Source: Candidatus Woesearchaeota archaeon (GTDB taxonomy: Archaea; Nanobdellota; Nanobdellia; Woesearchaeales; WJKR01). From it: a stretch of 64,000 bases of DNA. Within the stretch, counting starts at the first letter, position 1; every line of letters starts with the position of its first letter. This document shows, piece by piece, positions 146 through 39,334 of the stretch. Location: the NCBI GenBank assembly GCA_016927245.1, contig JAFGNA010000006.1, positions 17,230-81,229 of the forward strand, in the 5' to 3' direction. A model generated the notes under the pieces. It did no database searches. It had not been told where the DNA came from and saw only the letters and a list, made by a program, of their open reading frames with translations. The position numbers were made by a program, and so were the translations under genes.

Positions 146-1882
146 ATGAATAAGCGCACCCTCCACCTCGCAGTCCTCATACTGCTGCTAGGAGCGACAA
201 TCTCATTCCTCCCCTGGCTGCTCCCCGCACGGCAAGGGCACCTCACCCTCCTCACCGTCACCACCGTCAACGGCACCGAAATAGGCGGCACGGCGGACGT
301 CACCCTCAAACTCACGCCCGGCAAAGGAGACGTGTACATCACCACTTACCCCTTCACCAAGCTAGACACCCAGATCAGCACCCGATTCGCAAAGGAAGTG
401 GCCTGCGCCTACACAGAGATGCCCTGCGACAACCACGACTTCTTCTACACCATCCACGCGGACAGCAGCATCATCGGCGGCCCGAGCGCAGGAGCAGCCC
501 TCACCGCCCTCACCATCGCGCTGCTCGAACAGGAACCCATCGACCAAGGAGTCGCCATCACAGGCACGATCAACAGCGGCGGCATCGTCGGCCCAGTCGG
601 CGGCATCGACGCCAAGGCTGCCGCAGCGGCCGCGAAAGGCCTGCACACGGTCATTGTGCCGCGCTGGCAGCAGGAAAGGAACAACACCCATAACGAGTCG
701 TTGCTCGAGCTCGCCCTCATCCCAGGACCAAGCATAGCGATCGTCGAGGTCGCAACGATAGAAGAGGCGCTCACCGTGCTCACCGGCGAGCCGCACGGAC
801 AGGGACCAGCAGGGTTCACCGTGCCCAAAGCCTACACAGAGCTCATGGAAGCCATAGCGGAACGCATGTGTGATCACAGCGACCAGCTCCGCTCCACACT
901 AGACCTCGATGCCCTCGCAGATGACCCCTTGCTCAACCAGAGCGAAAGCTACCTCGCCGACGCCGAGCTGGCCGACGAGCGCGGCAACCACTACAGCAAA
1001 GCGAGCTACTGCTTCTCCGCTAACCTACGCCTGCGCGAGCTCCAGCTCATGAACGCCACCGACGAGGCCCTCGTCGCCGACGCAGAAGCGTTGCGCGAGA
1101 CCATCAACGAACGGCTCGCAGACCTCCAGGAGCGGCCGCTCATCACCTTCTCGGACCTGCAGACAAAGGCCATCGTCGACGAACGGCTTCGCGAGGCGGC
1201 GGGCTACCTCGAACAAGAGCCCTCGCCGAACTCCTTGGCATACGCCATGGAGCGGTACCGCAGCGCGATTATCTGGAGCAACTTCTTCCAACTCCCCGGA
1301 GAGCCGATTGCTCTCGAGGAATCTCACCTCCGCTCAGCGTGCGAGGCGAAGCTCGCAGAGGTCGAGGAGCGCAAGAGCTACATCGACGCCCTCTTCGGCC
1401 CCTTGCTCGCCATGGACGAAGCGAGCGTGAAGGACGCCTACGCGATGTATCGAGACGGCGACTACGCGCTGTGCCTGTCAGAGGCGTCCATGGCCAAGGC
1501 GCAGATAGACACAGTAATATCCAGCATCTCCATGGACGAGGACGACCTCGACATGTTAGTAGGTGAGAAGCTCCGCGCCGCGGAGCGCGTATTGTCACGC
1601 GAGTCGTCGCAAGGACGATTCCCGGTCATGGGCTACAGCTATTATGAGTATGCGAGCTCGCTGCGCGAGGAAGACCCGTACACAGCGACGCTGTTCTCCT
1701 CCTACGCCTTAGAACTGGCGGATCTGAGCATGTACTTCCCGTCGCGCCCGTCATGGTCCTCCCGGCTGCGCATGGCGTTGTCCAGCCCATTCATGATAGG
1801 GTTCATCGCGGGCATGCTCGTAGCGTTCATCCTAGTCGTGCTAGTCTTCCCTCAGAAGAAGCGTGCCCGCCGCAGGCCTTGA
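146..1882 (+). CDS. Membrane-anchored Lon-like S16 peptidase-domain protein without an AAA+ module. It has an N-terminal TM helix, a Lon proteolytic domain, a long helical region and a C-terminal TM helix.
   Basis: The translation shows the Lon S16 motif IIGGPSAGAALTALTIALL with a downstream conserved Lys (AAKGLHTVIVPR). Hydrophobic segments lie at both ends and there are no Walker A/B motifs. The start is more likely the ATG at 146 (MNKRTLHLAVLILLL) than at 53. Confidence 0.6.
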   Translation: MNKRTLHLAVLILLLGATISFLPWLLPARQGHLTLLTVTTVNGTEIGGTADVTLKLTPGKGDVYITTYPFTKLDTQISTRFAKEVACAYTEMPCDNHDFFYTIHADSSIIGGPSAGAALTALTIALLEQEPIDQGVAITGTINSGGIVGPVGGIDAKAAAAAAKGLHTVIVPRWQQERNNTHNESLLELALIPGPSIAIVEVATIEEALTVLTGEPHGQGPAGFTVPKAYTELMEAIAERMCDHSDQLRSTLDLDALADDPLLNQSESYLADAELADERGNHYSKASYCFSANLRLRELQLMNATDEALVADAEALRETINERLADLQERPLITFSDLQTKAIVDERLREAAGYLEQEPSPNSLAYAMERYRSAIIWSNFFQLPGEPIALEESHLRSACEAKLAEVEERKSYIDALFGPLLAMDEASVKDAYAMYRDGDYALCLSEASMAKAQIDTVISSISMDEDDLDMLVGEKLRAAERVLSRESSQGRFPVMGYSYYEYASSLREEDPYTATLFSSYALELADLSMYFPSRPSWSSRLRMALSSPFMIGFIAGMLVAFILVVLVFPQKKRARRRP

Positions 1883-4902: not shown

Positions 4903-5346
4903 ATGACCATCATAGGATTCAACTTTTCCAAGCTCTACGCGGTGCACAAGAAAGCATCCAAGGGCGACGTCAAGGTAGCCACCAACATCAAAATTGACGC
5001 CATCGAGAAGACGAGCATCAACATCGACGAGAGCAAGCTCGCGCTCAAGGCATCCTTCACCTACACGATTAAGTATGACCCTGATATCGGCTCGCTGGAA
5101 CTTCAGGGAGACCTCTTGTTCGTCCAAGAGACGAAAGTCGCTGAGGCATTCCTCGCCGAATGGGAAAAGAAGCGCTCGATGCCGCGAAAGGCGTCCTCTG
5201 CCATCGTCAACGCCATCTTGCCGAAGTGCGTCGTCCAGGCATTGATCATGACCAAGGACATCGGCTTGCCTTCACCCATCCCGCTGCCAAGGATGAAGTC
5301 GTCTAACGTCAAGGTCGAGAAGGACGCCGCTGATAAGAAGAAGTGA
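4903..5346 (+). CDS. Hypothetical protein (147 aa, K-rich C-terminus).
   Basis: ORF with appropriate spacing after the PLD gene. No motif recognised. Confidence 0.35.
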   Translation: MTIIGFNFSKLYAVHKKASKGDVKVATNIKIDAIEKTSINIDESKLALKASFTYTIKYDPDIGSLELQGDLLFVQETKVAEAFLAEWEKKRSMPRKASSAIVNAILPKCVVQALIMTKDIGLPSPIPLPRMKSSNVKVEKDAADKKK

Positions 5347-14397: not shown

Positions 14398-14515
14398 CGA
14401 GCCTGGAGGGATTCGAACCCTCGACCTAGTGCTGGCTCCTCCGCTGTTGCGGGAGTAGGAGGCACTCGCGCTTTCTGGAGATTGAAAAAGCCTATCCAGG
14501 CTGCGCTACAGGCTC
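14398..14515 (-). tRNA. tRNA, probably tRNA-Arg(CCU), carrying two introns. One of about 21 nt lies in the D-arm region and one of 22 nt at the canonical 37/38 site.
   Basis: The minus-strand read shows acceptor GAGCCTG/CAGGCTC, T-arm GAGGG-TTCGAAT-CCCTC, anticodon stem AGTGC/GCACT and loop CUCCUA|intron|A. The gene is 118 nt versus about 75 nt for a mature tRNA. The extra sequence between GCGC (10-13) and its partner GCGC implies a second insertion. Confidence 0.55.
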
Positions 14516-32454: not shown

Positions 32455-33072
32455 ATGCAGGTTATTGATGAGAAGCTCGCTGAACTCGTAGGCGTTCTCC
32501 TTGGCGATGGTTCAATCAACACTTCAGTGTCGGGCAATCTATTGTGGACTCGTGTTCAAGTCACTTTTCATTCTGAGCAGAAGGAATACATTGAGTATGT
32601 TCGTTCATTGATGGAAGAGGTGCTGGGTGTGAATCCGATATACAAGAAACGACGCGCTCAGAATTGTGCAGACCTACAGATTTTTCGTTTTGCTGTGTTG
32701 AGGGATCTGCTTTTGATAGGGATGCAATTGTCTCCTAAATGGGATAGGGCGCGAATACCTCTCATGTTCATGAACAAATACTTCGGTAGATTTGTGCTCC
32801 GCGGATACTTCGATACTGACGGAAGTGTCGTGATTGCGAACAATAATGGTACTCGTTATCCTCGACTAGAGATGAAGATAAGCCCTTCTCCTATGCAAGA
32901 ACAGCTATTGATGCTCTTAGACTTGCATGGGTTCCATTATGGAGTCTATGATATTGGGAAAGGGAAAGTGCGTGTGCAGATGAACGGATTCTCTGCCTTG
33001 AAGAGATGGAATGAGGAGATAGGTTTCTCGAACAGCTATTATCAGGAGAGATGTGACTCTTTCTATACATAA
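32455..33072 (+). CDS. Free-standing LAGLIDADG homing endonuclease (double-motif).
   Basis: Two LAGLIDADG motifs are present: LAELVGVLLGDGSI and LRGYFDTDGSV. The gene is about 45% GC versus about 60% for the flanks and starts 65 nt after the two-intron initiator tRNA. Confidence 0.8.
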   Translation: MQVIDEKLAELVGVLLGDGSINTSVSGNLLWTRVQVTFHSEQKEYIEYVRSLMEEVLGVNPIYKKRRAQNCADLQIFRFAVLRDLLLIGMQLSPKWDRARIPLMFMNKYFGRFVLRGYFDTDGSVVIANNNGTRYPRLEMKISPSPMQEQLLMLLDLHGFHYGVYDIGKGKVRVQMNGFSALKRWNEEIGFSNSYYQERCDSFYT

Positions 33073-34453: not shown

Positions 34454-35431
34454 TCAGTGCTCCAGTATCTCGATGGAATAATCCTTGTTCGCGGTTATCC
34501 TCGCCTTGCCGCCTATCGGGAATGCTGCCATCGGGGTGGTGTGCCCGAAGTCGACGTTGGCGATGATGGGGATGTTGTCCAGTTCTTTCTTCGTCTTCAC
34601 GATGCTGGTGAGGATTTCCTTGGTCATGTTGGATTCGTTTTGGAACCGCCCGGTGACTATGCCCTTGACGCCGCTGAAGTCGTTTTGGTGCAGTACTGAT
34701 TGGAGGTTCCGGTCGAAGTGGTGCGGTTGGGATTCATGGTCATCCTCGAGGAAGAGGATGGTGTCCTTGAGCGAGGGCTTGTACTCCGTCCCTTGGAGGA
34801 GGTTGAACGTGCACAGGTTCGCGCCGACAATCGTCCCTTCAGCGCTCCCTTCATTCAATACCCAGTAGCCCTCGTTCTTGGTGAAGCTCCTGTTCTCCTG
34901 GTCGTTCGCCCAGCGGTCGTCGCTCCACTCTCTTGAAGGGGTGATGCGGTACGATCCTTCTTGCATGAGGCATTCCCTGAACTTCTGCTCCGTGTACACG
35001 ATGCTTTTCTTGTCGCCGAACGTGAACCAGTGCGGTCCGGAATACGTGACCATGCCCGTCTTCGTGTAGATGGCGTTCTGCAGCGCGGTGATGTCCGAGT
35101 ACCCGCAGAGTATCTTCGGGTTCGCCCTGATGAGGTCGTAGTCGAGGTGGCGCAATAGCTGGTTGCTGTTGAAGCCGCCGATGACGGTCAGCACCGCCTT
35201 GACGTTCTTGTCGCTGAACGCGTCGTGCAGGTCTTCCATTCGGTGCTCGATGGTGGTGGAGCCGAACTCATCCATCTCGTCGACGTGCTTGCCGTACGTC
35301 ACGGTGAAGCCCATGCTCTCAAGCTTCTCATGGGCGTCGTCCTTGATGTTCTGTATCCAGGGGAGCATCCTGCTCCTCGCAGGGGTGATGACGCGTATCT
35401 CGTCCCCGACCTTGAGTTTTGGTGGTAGCAT
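34454..35431 (-). CDS. LD-carboxypeptidase (peptidase S66, MccF/LdcA-like).
   Basis: N-terminal LKVGDEIRVITPARS, the serine region (GYSDITAL) and C-terminal His/Glu are present. The start is probably MLPPKLKVGD rather than the extended ORF start. Confidence 0.6.
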   Translation of the reverse strand: MLPPKLKVGDEIRVITPARSRMLPWIQNIKDDAHEKLESMGFTVTYGKHVDEMDEFGSTTIEHRMEDLHDAFSDKNVKAVLTVIGGFNSNQLLRHLDYDLIRANPKILCGYSDITALQNAIYTKTGMVTYSGPHWFTFGDKKSIVYTEQKFRECLMQEGSYRITPSREWSDDRWANDQENRSFTKNEGYWVLNEGSAEGTIVGANLCTFNLLQGTEYKPSLKDTILFLEDDHESQPHHFDRNLQSVLHQNDFSGVKGIVTGRFQNESNMTKEILTSIVKTKKELDNIPIIANVDFGHTTPMAAFPIGGKARITANKDYSIEILEH

Positions 35432-35520
35432 GCTCCTCCTGGAGGGCGCACTCTTATAAATACTCTTCTGATGAAAACCATTATATAATCCGGGTTTCTC
35501 TCTTTTCCCACTGGCCATGT

Positions 35521-36570
35521 GTGCCCGTGGGCTATTTGAACATCTTCTTATTCTTTATTTCAGTGAATGACGAAATAGCTGAATGCGTCGGTTTATGGCT
35601 TGCCGAAGGTGATTCCACGTCTCGCTATGAGCTCACTTTCACGAATAATTCCCCTGCTTTGATTCGTCATTTCTATTCTGGCGTTTCAGGACTGTTCCCT
35701 GGAGAGCGATATCACTTGTACATTTATGGTCTTGGCAATCCTGTCAAACCCCCTATTCCTGGGATCGCCGTTAGGACCTATACGGACAAACGTGCTCGGA
35801 AGCCATATTTTATCATTCGCTTGGCATCAAAGGCGACCATGACTGCTTGGTATGATATTGTCAGTGACTATCTTTCTTCTGATGATATCTCTGTTGTCGC
35901 GTCTATCATCAGAGGGTTCTTTGCCGGTGAAGGTTCGGTAAAGGTTTCTTCCCACAATTCCAGAATATTGCGGATAGCGCAGAAAGAAAGGACCGATTAC
36001 CTTGATAACACGTTTTCTCTGCTCGGTTTGCACTTCCGTTTCTTTGCTGGCAATAGGACCTACGAGTTCTCAGGAAGAGATAACTGGCTAGTATTCGCTG
36101 AACATCGCCTGGCTGACCTTCACCCTTTGAAGAAGGCGTCGTTCTGGAGTGCTTATCATGATTTTAAGCAATGTCATTACCCTAAACTGTATCTTAAGCA
36201 AAGCATCTTTCCACTGCTGTCCGAGCCGAAGAGTGCTCGGCAGCTGGCAAAAGCCTTTTCTCGTTCTTCTGCAAGAATATATGATGTTCTCAGTGAGTTG
36301 AAAGAAGAAGGGTCAGTGAGCAATTATCGAGTCGGAAGCGTGGACTACTGGGTCGCAAGTGATTGTTTGGTCATTTCTGGGAAGAAGAAAGCGTATCTTG
36401 ACTGCTTATCCATACCCCGTGTGGCTTCTTATTGTGCTCGCTTGTTCGATGTCACCCATAAATCTGCTACGAGAAGACTCAGAGAGCTGGAAAAACTGGG
36501 CTTGGCCCAACGTCTGCCTAATAAGCAATGGAAAGCTATAAATACCGAGAAAAAGTTATGTGTCATATGA
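35521..36570 (+). CDS. LAGLIDADG-family endonuclease-like protein fused to two C-terminal winged-helix domains. AT-rich, likely non-ATG start.
   Basis: LAGLIDADG-like motifs VGLWLAEGDST and IIRGFFAGEGSV are present, with wHTH-like segments (SARQLAKAFSRSSARIYDVLSELKEEG; KSATRRLRELEKLGLAQRL). GC content is low relative to the neighbours. The 5' 100 nt of the listed ORF overlap the LD-carboxypeptidase gene, so a GTG/TTG start near 35521 is more plausible. Confidence 0.55.
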   Translation: MPVGYLNIFLFFISVNDEIAECVGLWLAEGDSTSRYELTFTNNSPALIRHFYSGVSGLFPGERYHLYIYGLGNPVKPPIPGIAVRTYTDKRARKPYFIIRLASKATMTAWYDIVSDYLSSDDISVVASIIRGFFAGEGSVKVSSHNSRILRIAQKERTDYLDNTFSLLGLHFRFFAGNRTYEFSGRDNWLVFAEHRLADLHPLKKASFWSAYHDFKQCHYPKLYLKQSIFPLLSEPKSARQLAKAFSRSSARIYDVLSELKEEGSVSNYRVGSVDYWVASDCLVISGKKKAYLDCLSIPRVASYCARLFDVTHKSATRRLRELEKLGLAQRLPNKQWKAINTEKKLCVI

Positions 36571-36572
36571 GC

Positions 36573-37477
36573 ATGTTCATCGCCGGCATCGACGAGGCAG
36601 GCAGAGAATAACACTCGCGTGGTGTCATTCGCCTATAGGCCCCGTTATCGGCCCCATGGTCATGGCCATCGCGGCTATCGAGGAGAAGGATCTCTTTGAA
36701 TTAGAGACGTTCGGCGTCACGGATTCCAAGGCGTTCTCTCCCGTCCAGCGTCGCGAGCTGGCCGAGATGGTGCGTCGCGTGTGCGAGGTCGAAGTGGAAA
36801 TAGCCACGCCCGAGCAAATTGATGAGGCCTTGACGCATCCTTCGCGCAATCTGAACATATTGGAGGCCGAGATGGCCGGCCGCCTCATCGACCGCCTCGT
36901 GGAGCGCCTCGGCGCCCTCAAGATCAAGAAGGTCATCCTTGATTGCCCATCATCGAACGCCAAGGCGTACGTCAAGGACATGCAGCACCGCGTCAAGCGT
37001 GACGTCCTTTTGGAGGCGGAGCACAAGGCGGACCAGAAGTATCGCATCGTCGGCGCCGCGTCCATCCTGGCAAAGGTCATCCGGGACGAGGAGATAGAGG
37101 CCTTGAAGAGGGAGCACGGCGTGGATTTCGGCAGCGGCTATCCCTCCGACGCGAAGACCGCTCGTTTCGTGAGGGAACACCATGCCGATTACGATTTCTT
37201 CCGGAAGACGTGGGAGCCGTACAGAAGGGCGGCTTCTGGCAAGGAGCAGCAATCACTGGGCAGGTTCGGCGTAGATATCTCTTTGCCGCCCGCCGTCAAG
37301 AAGAAGCAGGACAAGTTGTTGGAATTATTGGAGGAAGGATTCGTCCGCGCCGAGGCCAAGGGTGTTGCTGAGGTGTTGCGCTTGCGGCGGGAAGGCGTCA
37401 CCATCACGCTGTACGCGAACGGCAAGGTCTTGGTGCAGGGCAAGGAGAAGGAGGAGTGGGAGCGACGGCTCTCATGA
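36573..37477 (+). CDS. rnhB: Ribonuclease HII, interrupted after the GIDEAGR motif by a 32-nt element (about 36606-36637) that shifts frame. It would be intact if that element were removed at the RNA level.
   Basis: The ATG at 36573 encodes MFIAGIDEAGRE followed by a stop. The downstream body (GPVIGPMVMAIAA...DSKAFSP...ADQKYRIVGAASILAKVIRD...GSGYPSD) is canonical RNase HII in another frame. Deleting the 32 nt restores GIDEAGRGPVIGP exactly. Confidence 0.75.
36606..36637 (+). other. 32-nt intervening element within rnhB. Candidate archaeal mRNA intron (relaxed bulge-helix-bulge) or inactivating insertion.
   Basis: Element gaataacactcgcgtggtgtcattcgcctata. Its removal restores the frame and the conserved GIDEAGRGPVIGP motif. 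It contains an internal hairpin GAATAACAC/GTGTCATTC. Confidence 0.5.
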
Positions 37478-38434: not shown

Positions 38435-38524
38435 CCAAGAGTGTTCTCCCTCGTAGTATTTATGTGTTATGAGAATGCGCCACCGCCCGCTTCTTCACTG
38501 TTCTTCAGGGCGGACGGTGGACTA

Positions 38525-38663
38525 CGCCACCGCCCGGATTCGAACCGGGAATCCCGTGAGGGACCGGCTAACCAGGTATTCTTCCATGGTGAAGAATATC
38601 ACTCAAGGCTTACGCTCACCTTTAAGGGGTGATCGGCGCAATACCAGGTTATGCGACGGTGGC
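38525..38663 (-). tRNA. Intron-containing tRNA (about 65-nt insert) paralogous to 28413-28568. Class-II-like, anticodon unresolved.
   Basis: 5' GCCACCG-UC-GCAUAACCUGGUAUUGCGC matches the other gene at 24 of 26 positions. The 3' part is CCCGG-UUCGAAU-CCGGG-CGGUGGC-G with a perfect acceptor pairing. A CCC-UCAC-GGG variable-arm-like hairpin is present. Confidence 0.5.
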
Positions 38664-38699
38664 AAAGCTTCCATTATAAACGAACACTGCTGCTTATTT

Positions 38700-39206
38700 A
38701 AACTTAACTGGTAGGAAAGATGTTTTCCTCGCTGCTCATATGTCTTGGTTTCCCGCTCAAAAGCCCATACCGTACGAATCAGCTGTTGAAGACCTATGAG
38801 GAGTCGTTCGCTCGCAACATGAAATAAATACATCCTCTCAGGTCGCAATGAACTATCAGTGACGAGAAGGCCGAGGAAGAAGTGCTTCTGCAATTCATGC
38901 GAGCCATCCAATATGAACGAAGGAATGCCTACAGGCAACGCTTTCTTGCCGTTTGCCATCTCCAACTTACTGTTCAGAAGGATAATAGCTGTCGACTGAA
39001 TGCTTGTAGAACTCCCAAGGAGGTTGTTTATGATTCCTCTCACCGCACCTGGTCTTGCCTTTGAAGCCGAAGACCCGGAAGAACAGTTCAGAAAACAGCT
39101 CGACGTACTCCTTTCTCGTATTATAGAACTTGATAGGATGCATCCTGTTCCCATCACCGTTATGATTCACTGATAAACAGTCGTCACCGGCGAACATCCC
39201 CGGCAA
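38700..39206 (-). pseudogene. Decayed LAGLIDADG homing endonuclease-like ORFs (frameshifted) in an AT-rich island upstream of tRNA 38525-38663.
   Basis: One frame has ...FFLGLLVTDSSL... and a typical C-terminal half. An overlapping frame (38967-39206) has ...FAGDDCL...ELFFRVFGFKGK.... GC content is low. Confidence 0.35.
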
Positions 39207-39334
39207 TAATGCAGGTTCCTCGGTCAGGTCTGGCGTGGGCAGATCTTTCCTTTCATAGGGTGTGATTCAGGAATGATAATGCGGTATTAATGCCCTTCGC
39301 GCGCTTGGCCAGAGGTTCTTTCCTCAGAATTCCA

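Follow-up and report, generated by a model that had tools for sequence, protein, structure and literature searches.

We know of no settled account of how bulge-helix-bulge (BHB) introns that lack an open reading frame (ORF) move or arise. Introns in archaeal protein-coding genes are extremely rare, and the one documented case in the literature retrieved is the BHB intron in the cbf5 pre-mRNA of Crenarchaeota (PMC2738675). Collaborative homing has been described in cyanophage S-PM2, where a free-standing endonuclease, F-CphI, is encoded next to a psbA gene that contains an intron (Zeng, Bonocora and Shub 2009, as summarised in PMC6083498), a case to which the T4 pair of mobE and the defunct I-TevIII nrdB intron is related (PMC2790892), and in Torulaspora and Lachancea yeasts WHO elements adjoin the gene FBA1 (Coughlan et al. 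2020, PMC7282813). The locus analyzed here bears comparison with these systems. It lies in a stretch of 64,000 nucleotides (hereafter the window, with position 1 as its first letter) from a Candidatus Woesearchaeota archaeon (GenBank assembly GCA_016927245.1, contig JAFGNA010000006.1, positions 17,230 to 81,229 of the forward strand), where the gene of a putative free-standing LAGLIDADG endonuclease with two winged helices stands directly upstream of rnhB, the gene of ribonuclease (RNase) HII, which is itself split by a predicted BHB intron in the codons of its catalytic motif. Judged by sequence comparison, endonuclease and intron make up a conserved two-part element that recurs across several archaeal phyla and is without prior description in the literature searched, which held no account of the LAGLIDADG-winged-helix family or of an endonuclease-rnhB intron partnership, and no paper linking RNase HII to a BHB intron. 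The parts of the element are the following.

35563..36570, + strand: free-standing endonuclease gene with a LAGLIDADG core and two winged helices; 335 amino acids (aa) plus stop; GTG as the most likely start
35584..35610, + strand: LAGLIDADG motif 1, CVGLWLAEG (aa 8-16); helix 3-15 ends in E15, the catalytic-position residue
35905..35934, + strand: LAGLIDADG motif 2, IIRGFFAGEG (aa 115-124); helix 109-123 ends in E123, the catalytic-position residue
36175..36360, + strand: winged helix 1, about aa 205-266; Pfam TrmB, AlphaFold2 (AF2) model, SelB/MarR fold matches
36370..36567, + strand: winged helix 2, about aa 270-335; weak Pfam MarR and HTH_20 matches, AF2 model; its last codons also carry rnhB expression signals
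36573..36604, + strand: rnhB exon 1, encoding MFIAGIDEAG plus the first two bases of an Arg codon
36605..36636, + strand: predicted 32-nt BHB intron in rnhB; the canonical cut rule restores DEAGRGPVIGP
36637..37477, + strand: rnhB exon 2, with the RNase HII catalytic domain and a C-terminal DUF3378-like domain (Pfam RNase_HII, 1.2e-36)

An earlier, model-made annotation of the window (the original prediction) had read two LAGLIDADG-type motifs and two C-terminal winged helix-turn-helix segments from this ORF, and both pairs were recovered. Pfam LAGLIDADG_3 matches at 25.1 bits (cut-off 22.5), covering motif 2 only, and the AF2 model (pLDDT 93.6) folds residues 1-180 into a core of two alpha-beta-beta-alpha-beta-beta-alpha halves, followed by a linker helix and two winged helices, the first composed of helices 210-218, 225-232 and 236-248 with a beta hairpin at 252-265, the second of helices 273-281, 288-294 and 299-311 plus strands. 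When the model was compared with the PDB by Foldseek, the core matched the bI3 maturase (best match), I-DmoI (TM 0.62, normalised to target length), PI-SceI and I-OnuI with E values of 5e-5 to 1e-3, and the tail matched the tandem winged helices of SelB as well as RPC62 and MarR-type regulators; WhiA (8dy9_I) was also among the matches. The Pfam profiles that touch the winged helices remain below threshold (TrmB for the first, 2.7e-5, 24.4 versus a cut-off of 25.6; MarR for the second, 15.2 versus 24.6, next to a weak HTH_20 match). The protein does not class with the TrmB/MarR regulators, given the lack of an above-threshold profile match, its different architecture and a likeness confined to the fold level. 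Pfam WhiA and all NCBIfam models gave no match, no curated family covers the protein, a PDB sequence search returned noise only, and PADLOC found just a weak Csa3 winged-helix match.

The acidic residues at the catalytic positions, whose retention the original prediction had singled out as a check, are both present. Conservation was read from an alignment of 37 diverse homologues, in which the family motifs are CVGLWLAEG and LRGFFAGEG. C8, G10-A14 and G16 are invariant in the first and G118, F120, G122 and G124 in the second, while E15 and E123 are each retained in at least 90% of the sequences and otherwise replaced by D; N28 and Q140 are likewise invariant and pseudo-symmetric. On the strength of the model and the alignment, the ORF product is probably an intact, monomeric double-motif LAGLIDADG endonuclease with two winged-helix domains that is catalytically active.

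That the ORF is real was borne out by the 137 full-length homologues (335-347 aa) obtained in a word-indexed search, mostly from Woese-, Pace-, Nano- and Aenigmarchaeota, and by the recurrence of the same architecture in about 87 assemblies. The family is nonetheless small, since an exhaustive profile search of 1.84 billion representatives yielded only 89 matches below 1e-30. A scan of GTDB with one genome per species (90 confirmed matches, 80 kept) added Micr-, Iain-, Nanohalo- and Altiarchaeota, Thermoplasmata and Thaumarchaeota to the hosts. Public labels of the homologues mostly read 'hypothetical protein' or 'transcriptional regulator'. Six more distant relatives (P0349, P0356, P0360, P0371, P0381 and P0385; E 1e-13 to 1e-20, 350-455 aa) combine an N-terminal extension with the LAGLIDADG core, some of them also giving a match to the LAGLIDADG model of WhiA, and among the six scanned a winged helix is present in at least three (P0360, P0381, P0385), which suggests a broader, unexplored class of LAGLIDADG-winged-helix fusions.

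Linkage to rnhB is invariant. The gene follows directly downstream on the same strand in 8/8 distinct loci recovered through proteins, and directly downstream in 79/79 assessable loci of the GTDB scan, amounting to 87/87 assessable loci overall. The other neighbours of the pair vary between loci, with DNA-repair genes nearby in some. The endonuclease stop and the rnhB start usually overlap (ATGA, GTGA or TTGA), and in many loci a GGTGAT Shine-Dalgarno sequence lies within the last endonuclease codons. In two loci of Norongarragalinales (L007, at about 5000-5104, and L025) no stop closes the endonuclease ORF ahead of rnhB; the ORF runs on across exon 1 and the intron in a different frame, for a product of 367 aa with a 30-aa tail. 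In an Aenigmatarchaeota locus (L009:1-2472), an intein that has a LAGLIDADG domain of its own is found in the MCM gene, two genes off, so that this neighbourhood appears, from its sequence, to gather several homing elements.

The interruption of rnhB noted in the original prediction takes the form of the 32-nt insert at 36605-36636, which splits the DEAGRG codons. A first DNA alignment of four loci showed the insert at the same place in these codons, with conserved ends and a variable middle. In the window it begins 34 nt past the endonuclease stop and contains no ORF. Its predicted RNA fold has a 4-bp central helix formed by exon AGGC (36599-36602) and intron GCCU (36631-36634), bulges at 36603-05 (AGA) and 36635-37 (ATA), and an inner hairpin at 36606-36630. 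The canonical archaeal BHB rule (a 4-bp helix and two 3-nt bulges, with cuts after the second bulge base) removes exactly 36605-36636 and restores MFIAGIDEAGRGPVIGP, giving a predicted spliced junction of GCAGGCAG joined to AGGCCCCGTT and an intact spliced rnhB translation. The same rule had a unique frame-restoring solution in about 60 loci, several further introns being visible by eye; an intron, 20-100 nt long, is present in about 85% of the endonuclease loci (roughly 74/87).

The inner helix, which played no part in locating the introns, is paired at positions 1 to 4 in 58, 53, 55 and 53 of 59 introns, respectively. In a gapless alignment of 52 introns, 91.9% of cells were paired, versus 66.5% upon shuffling (0/500 shuffles reached the observed value) and 31-51% when the alignment was slid; compensatory changes were seen in 6/6 inner-helix pairs, as well as in the two pairs of the central helix (9-31 and 12-28) in which wobble bases of Ala and Gly codons take part. 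This covariation strongly supports the proposed BHB structure. The hairpin sequences themselves are unrelated between introns and offer no common sequence for recognition by a protein. The outer exon-exon helix is weak (3 bp, GGC/GCC, formed only when 4 nt are assigned to bulge 2), which would make this a relaxed BHB form in need of a broad-specificity splicing endonuclease. Three splice registers occur, AG/A in most lineages, A/GA in some Aenigmatarchaeota-type loci and AGA G/GC in Micrarchaeota-type loci (slashes mark the splice site), differing by -1, 0 and +2 nt between lineages. By its structure, the intron is predicted to be excised from the rnhB mRNA by the tRNA-splicing endonuclease and ligase. 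Translational bypassing of the 32-nt gap in the manner of T4 gene 60 was considered and rejected, as the conserved Gly would be lost with an AGG landing site, and bypassing would not predict the covariation, which follows the geometry of a BHB.

In the loci read by eye, an in-frame stop follows one to a few codons past the 5' splice site (AGA GAA TAA in the window), and unspliced mRNA would thus give only a peptide of about 12-17 aa. Annotation has been misled: the public call for the window rnhB starts downstream of the intron (271 aa, P0121), ORF finders start in the wrong frame at 36560, and rnhB is truncated or wrongly started in the annotation of most of the approximately 87 related loci. 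Elsewhere in the window (14398-14515, - strand), Rfam finds a 118-nt tRNA match missed by ARAGORN; this is presumably an intron-containing tRNA, which would show the BHB splicing machinery to be in use in this genome.

When the RNase HII of the window was set beside its best 120 relatives, the N-terminal (D/E)EAGRG was missing in four only: the window, L001, the P0003 contig and L012. The rnhB site is filled in the first three, and L012 has the intron and lacks the endonuclease. The closest rnhB relatives (69-76% identity; L010, L011, L102 and L103) have the same flanking genes and neither endonuclease nor intron. In L011 and L102 the carboxypeptidase gene is followed by a spacer of about 50 nt and rnhB, in L103 Dus by a spacer of 39 nt and rnhB, and in L010 a gene for a HAD-family hydrolase (Pfam PF00702) precedes rnhB. 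Nine more distant loci from a metagenome scan with a single RNase HII query were all empty (9/9), too few for frequencies to be derived. Carriers and non-carriers interleave in the RNase HII tree. The endonuclease gene is thus polymorphic for presence and absence at one defined site among close relatives. The comparison of empty and filled sites places the insertion point between the TATA box and the ATG of rnhB, with the following features around it.

34454..35431, - strand: LD-carboxypeptidase gene, adjoining on the left; in empty-site relatives a spacer of about 50 nt separates it from rnhB
35454..35489, + strand: predicted promoter region that served rnhB before the insertion and now precedes the endonuclease gene; TTATAAATA (35454-62) and ATTATATAAT (35480-89)
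36537..36544, + strand: TATAAATA box, still within the endonuclease ORF at its 3' end and some 29 nt ahead of the rnhB ATG

In the empty sites of L011, L102 and L103, ACTTATTTATACC is followed by 24 nt and then the ATG. The TATA box of rnhB is kept at 35454-35462 in the window, in line with 35454-35489 being the original rnhB promoter, and the TATAAATA box is probably a promoter that the element itself brings for a near-leaderless rnhB mRNA. Window and L001 share 76% identity over the 130 nt that precede the endonuclease gene and are nearly identical in the last 55 nt of the ORF, the endonuclease proteins being only 67% identical. L001 retains at 1560-1620, between Dus and the endonuclease gene, a remnant of the 5' end of the LD-carboxypeptidase gene (MIPPKLKEGDEIRVIAPA); its left junction hence coincides with that in the window, even though the greater part of the carboxypeptidase gene is gone.

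The boundaries of the ORF needed revision at both ends. Its stop is the TGA at 36568-36570 and the rnhB ATG lies at 36573, leaving a gap of 2 nt instead of the 3 nt first assigned. At the 5' end, the longest possible ORF begins with TTG at 35419 and would overlap the divergent LD-carboxypeptidase gene; GTG codons at 35521, 35527 (the NCBI call, 347 aa) and 35563 are in-frame alternatives. The start is most likely GTG 35563, preferred because the ATG of the two closest homologues, P0002 and P0003, aligns there, which agrees with the non-ATG start suggested earlier. The maximal carboxypeptidase ORF (34454-35518, - strand) is about 29 codons too long, and its most likely start is the Met at 35431, because the N-terminus then matches the L011 and L001 homologues. 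With starts at 35431 and 35563 no overlap is left, so the overlap between the two genes reported in the original prediction was an artefact of maximal ORF calls.

The only DNA beside the insertion point that is conserved across phyla is formed by the catalytic-motif codons about 30 nt downstream, exactly where the intron sits. Where an intron is missing, the canonical site GAN GAN GCN GGN AGA GGN CC is kept in 1/13 endonuclease-linked alleles versus 8/12 endonuclease-free ones (Fisher p=0.0036, kinship ignored): the former read DDSGRG, DEAGKG, DDAGRGCLIGN and similar, whereas (D/E)EAGRGPVIGP is found in 12/12 of the latter. Thus, in the presence of the endonuclease the rnhB site is nearly always either split by an intron or altered, only one of the 13 intronless carriers being canonical. 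These patterns make the catalytic-motif DNA of rnhB, GAY GAR GCN GGN AGA GGN CC, the predicted target of the endonuclease. One endonuclease-linked rnhB (L070:4034-4066) has the degenerate catalytic motif DEARRGPIISV and may encode an inactivated RNase HII or represent an extreme escape allele.

As the original prediction had noted, the endonuclease ORF is AT-rich for its surroundings, with a GC content of 0.455 versus 0.56-0.61 in the flanking genes and a third-position GC content (GC3) of 0.457 versus 0.80-0.87 in surrounding genes. The same holds throughout the family: in GC-rich hosts, endonuclease GC3 is always far below that of rnhB (e.g., 0.56 versus 0.91, 0.54 versus 0.87 and 0.20 versus 0.59), in AT-rich hosts the two are about equal, and endonuclease GC3 follows that of the host in part (r=0.64). 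The low GC seen here is therefore common to the family and no proof of a very recent arrival, and we discarded very recent horizontal transfer as a conclusion from GC3 alone. Between close hosts the endonucleases are more diverged than the RNases HII (0.65 versus 0.76 identity), whereas between distant hosts they are more alike (0.41 versus 0.29-0.33), and the endonuclease tree scatters genomes labelled Micr-, Aenigmat- and Thermoplasmata. Both observations are consistent with some horizontal spread, although saturation may account for part of the pattern. About 9 of the 80 endonuclease copies are disrupted, five by frameshifts or indels (L068, L071, L087, L089 and L091; the frameshifts might be assembly errors) and four by internal stops (L058, L063, L081 and L088), three of the latter at conserved Trp codons.

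We consider it likely that the protein is a free-standing homing endonuclease that targets the catalytic-site DNA of rnhB and from which the host allele is shielded by the BHB intron or by escape mutations. The endonuclease gene occupies the short gap between the rnhB promoter and start codon and so would be co-transcribed with rnhB, and in most genomes the two would be translationally coupled. Its target would lie about 30 nt downstream of its own gene, in the universally conserved codons of the RNase HII catalytic motif; in carrier genomes these codons are nearly always disrupted, usually by the small ORF-less BHB intron and otherwise by putative escape substitutions, and the host tRNA-splicing endonuclease and ligase would remove the intron from the rnhB mRNA. 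On meeting a naive allele, the element would cleave it, and recombinational repair would copy the endonuclease gene and the intron together, as in collaborative homing. That the enzyme cleaves, where exactly it does so, that the intron is spliced in vivo and how the break is repaired are inferences from the comparisons above. The original prediction had proposed this ORF as the agent that delivered the rnhB insertion. The link between the two is supported, as gene and insert come and go together among close relatives, the family always adjoins rnhB, the catalytic-position residues are kept and decayed copies occur; delivery of the insert as cargo is probably not what happens, the endonuclease more likely mobilising the insert, or being shielded by it, from outside rather than carrying it inside.

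Several observations weigh against this proposal. About 89% of the copies are intact, the endonuclease is as conserved as RNase HII (mean identity 0.435 versus 0.397) and the pairwise identities of the two proteins correlate (r=0.56), which leaves room for long vertical co-inheritance and some benefit to the host. A viral vector was considered and dropped, there being no relative of the endonuclease on viral contigs in IMG/VR. The 5' exon in the window has host-like codons, with no visible co-conversion tract, and for the insertion ahead of the ATG to pass between species, another point of recombination would be required, for which we saw no candidate. Thirteen loci keep the endonuclease without an intron, which is hence not obligatory, and most intronless loci fall in one Pace/Nano/Woesearchaeota subclade, kinship that the site test ignores.

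A more tentative extension, possible but in our view rather doubtful, is that cleavage pressure on the catalytic-site codons of rnhB itself creates BHB introns in a protein-coding gene. Where the enzyme cuts, short hairpin insertions would survive because the flanking exon sequences (GGC...GCC, NGGN) let a BHB fold and the tRNA splicing machinery removes them, and surviving insertions would then be fixed as immunity patches. Repeated independent intron births at one nuclease site would fit the three splice registers and the unrelated hairpin sequences. If true, intron birth by cleavage pressure would account for how ORF-less introns originate and spread in archaea.

Among other explanations, the one that fares best, which we nevertheless judge unlikely, is that of a domesticated LAGLIDADG-winged-helix protein resembling WhiA, serving as a host DNA-binding regulator of rnhB or as a repair or replication partner of RNase HII; a domesticated regulator was also the other role envisaged in the original prediction. 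The operon-like arrangement with rnhB, with its overlapping stop and start and embedded Shine-Dalgarno sequence, would be in line with such a function, as would the strong full-length conservation across phyla in mostly intact copies, the correlation with RNase HII identity, the WhiA fold match and the DNA-repair genes near some loci. However, the gene is absent from the closest relatives in an otherwise identical gene order, is rare overall, AT-rich relative to its hosts and decayed in places, and a regulator would leave the intron and the substitutions at the rnhB catalytic-site codons unexplained. WhiA, a core gene of its bacterial hosts, has lost its catalytic acidic residues. The present family shares with it the double LAGLIDADG scaffold and a C-terminal helix-turn-helix module, likewise at the fold level (8dy9_I), but differs in keeping the acidic residues and in its sporadic distribution; together with the lack of a Pfam WhiA match, this places it outside the WhiA-type regulators. 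With empty sites, decay, retained residues at the catalytic positions and altered target sites considered jointly, a domesticated regulator fits much worse than an agent linked to the insertion.

Still less probable is an RNA-binding maturase or chaperone, whose tandem SelB-like winged helices would bind the rnhB pre-mRNA hairpin and aid its splicing or translation. The idea draws on the bI3 LAGLIDADG maturase as best fold match, on the resemblance of the C-terminus to the winged helices by which SelB binds SECIS RNA, and on the intron being present in about 85% of the loci. BHB introns, though, are cut by the tRNA splicing endonuclease and do not need maturases, the acidic residues at the catalytic positions are conserved, and the intron hairpins share no recognisable sequence. 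A maturase-like role is unlikely above all because intron and protein each occur without the other (intron without protein in L012, protein without intron in 13 loci). An artefact, i.e., low-GC DNA chimerically assembled into a high-GC contig or a chance ORF, with rnhB a frameshifted pseudogene, might be suspected from the sharp GC drop across the ORF and the source in a metagenome-assembled genome, but is effectively refuted by recurrence of the same architecture in about 87 independent assemblies, upstream and downstream junctions conserved with L001, AT-rich endonucleases in all GC-rich hosts and covariation of the intron structure, and we give it next to no credence.

Other LAGLIDADG candidates lie near the homing endonuclease gene in the window. 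The original prediction had counted four LAGLIDADG loci in 11 kb, of which the endonuclease ORF and the ORF at 32455-33072 were confirmed by profile and 38603-39157 was not. The former of the two neighbours (32455-33072, + strand) encodes 205 aa and is another free-standing LAGLIDADG gene, strongly matched by Pfam LAGLIDADG_3, _2 and _1; it is AT-rich (GC3 0.48), related to the rnhB-linked endonuclease only at the motif level and absent from the syntenic L103, and L010 has a different, 254-aa LAGLIDADG gene nearby. Neither a target nor a partner intron was found for it. The latter (38603-39157, - strand), proposed as a decayed copy, was rejected as such, having no Pfam match and a BLASTP E value of 0.12 versus the other LAGLIDADG ORFs. 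It lies in a low-GC block (38435-39334) between a DAG-kinase-like gene and orf167, in place of which the spacer of the syntenic loci L010 and L103 is shorter and contains an ORF of 78 aa. A tRNA or other RNA gene beside these ORFs was also looked for, and ARAGORN and Rfam found none near 32.4 kb or 38.6 kb.

How, then, does the element compare with described systems? I-DmoI, encoded by a BHB intron in rRNA, has D or E at the ends of its LAGLIDADG helices. Acidic residues end both LAGLIDADG helices here as well, and the monomeric double-motif fold (TM 0.62) and the association with archaeal BHB introns are shared; unlike in I-DmoI, the ORF lies outside the intron, the host gene is protein-coding, about 140 extra residues form the two winged helices, and identity is about 16%. 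This tandem winged-helix extension would constitute a new LAGLIDADG architecture that may interest meganuclease engineers. The cbf5 intron is likewise a BHB intron in a protein-coding gene with patchy gain and loss (PMC2738675). The present intron differs in gene, position and lineages (DPANN, Thermoplasmata and Thaumarchaeota), and the title and abstract of the cbf5 paper mention no endonuclease linked to that gene.

Like WHO elements, the locus combines a LAGLIDADG-type endonuclease carrying an extra DNA-binding domain with an adjacent essential, conserved gene (PMC7282813). WHO elements cut sensitive FBA1 alleles and are copied in with a resistant end of the gene (PMC7282813), and the endonuclease-linked intronless rnhB alleles with altered motif codons resemble such resistant alleles. 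WHO proteins, however, are intein-derived, have zinc fingers and replace the 3' end of FBA1, whereas the present element sits at the 5' end of its gene, and resistance would here usually be conferred by an RNA-spliced intron. With a single nuclease, a 32-nt intron and a universally conserved target, the locus is compact and lends itself to testing, within an endonuclease-rnhB system that spans DPANN archaea, Thermoplasmata and Thaumarchaeota.

A close parallel is that with F-CphI and psbA: the endonuclease gene stands beside, not inside, a conserved gene with an ORF-less intron at the presumed cut site, and the intron would both shield the host allele and travel along with the endonuclease. 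F-CphI has an Endo VII-type fold and mobE is an HNH endonuclease, in contrast to the LAGLIDADG core with two winged helices found here; their partner introns are self-splicing group I introns, whereas the rnhB intron is a BHB intron of 20-100 nt that would need host enzymes; and their hosts are phages, whereas the present element resides in archaeal chromosomes. If our reading holds, it would extend collaborative homing from the group I introns of phages to protein-spliced introns of archaea.

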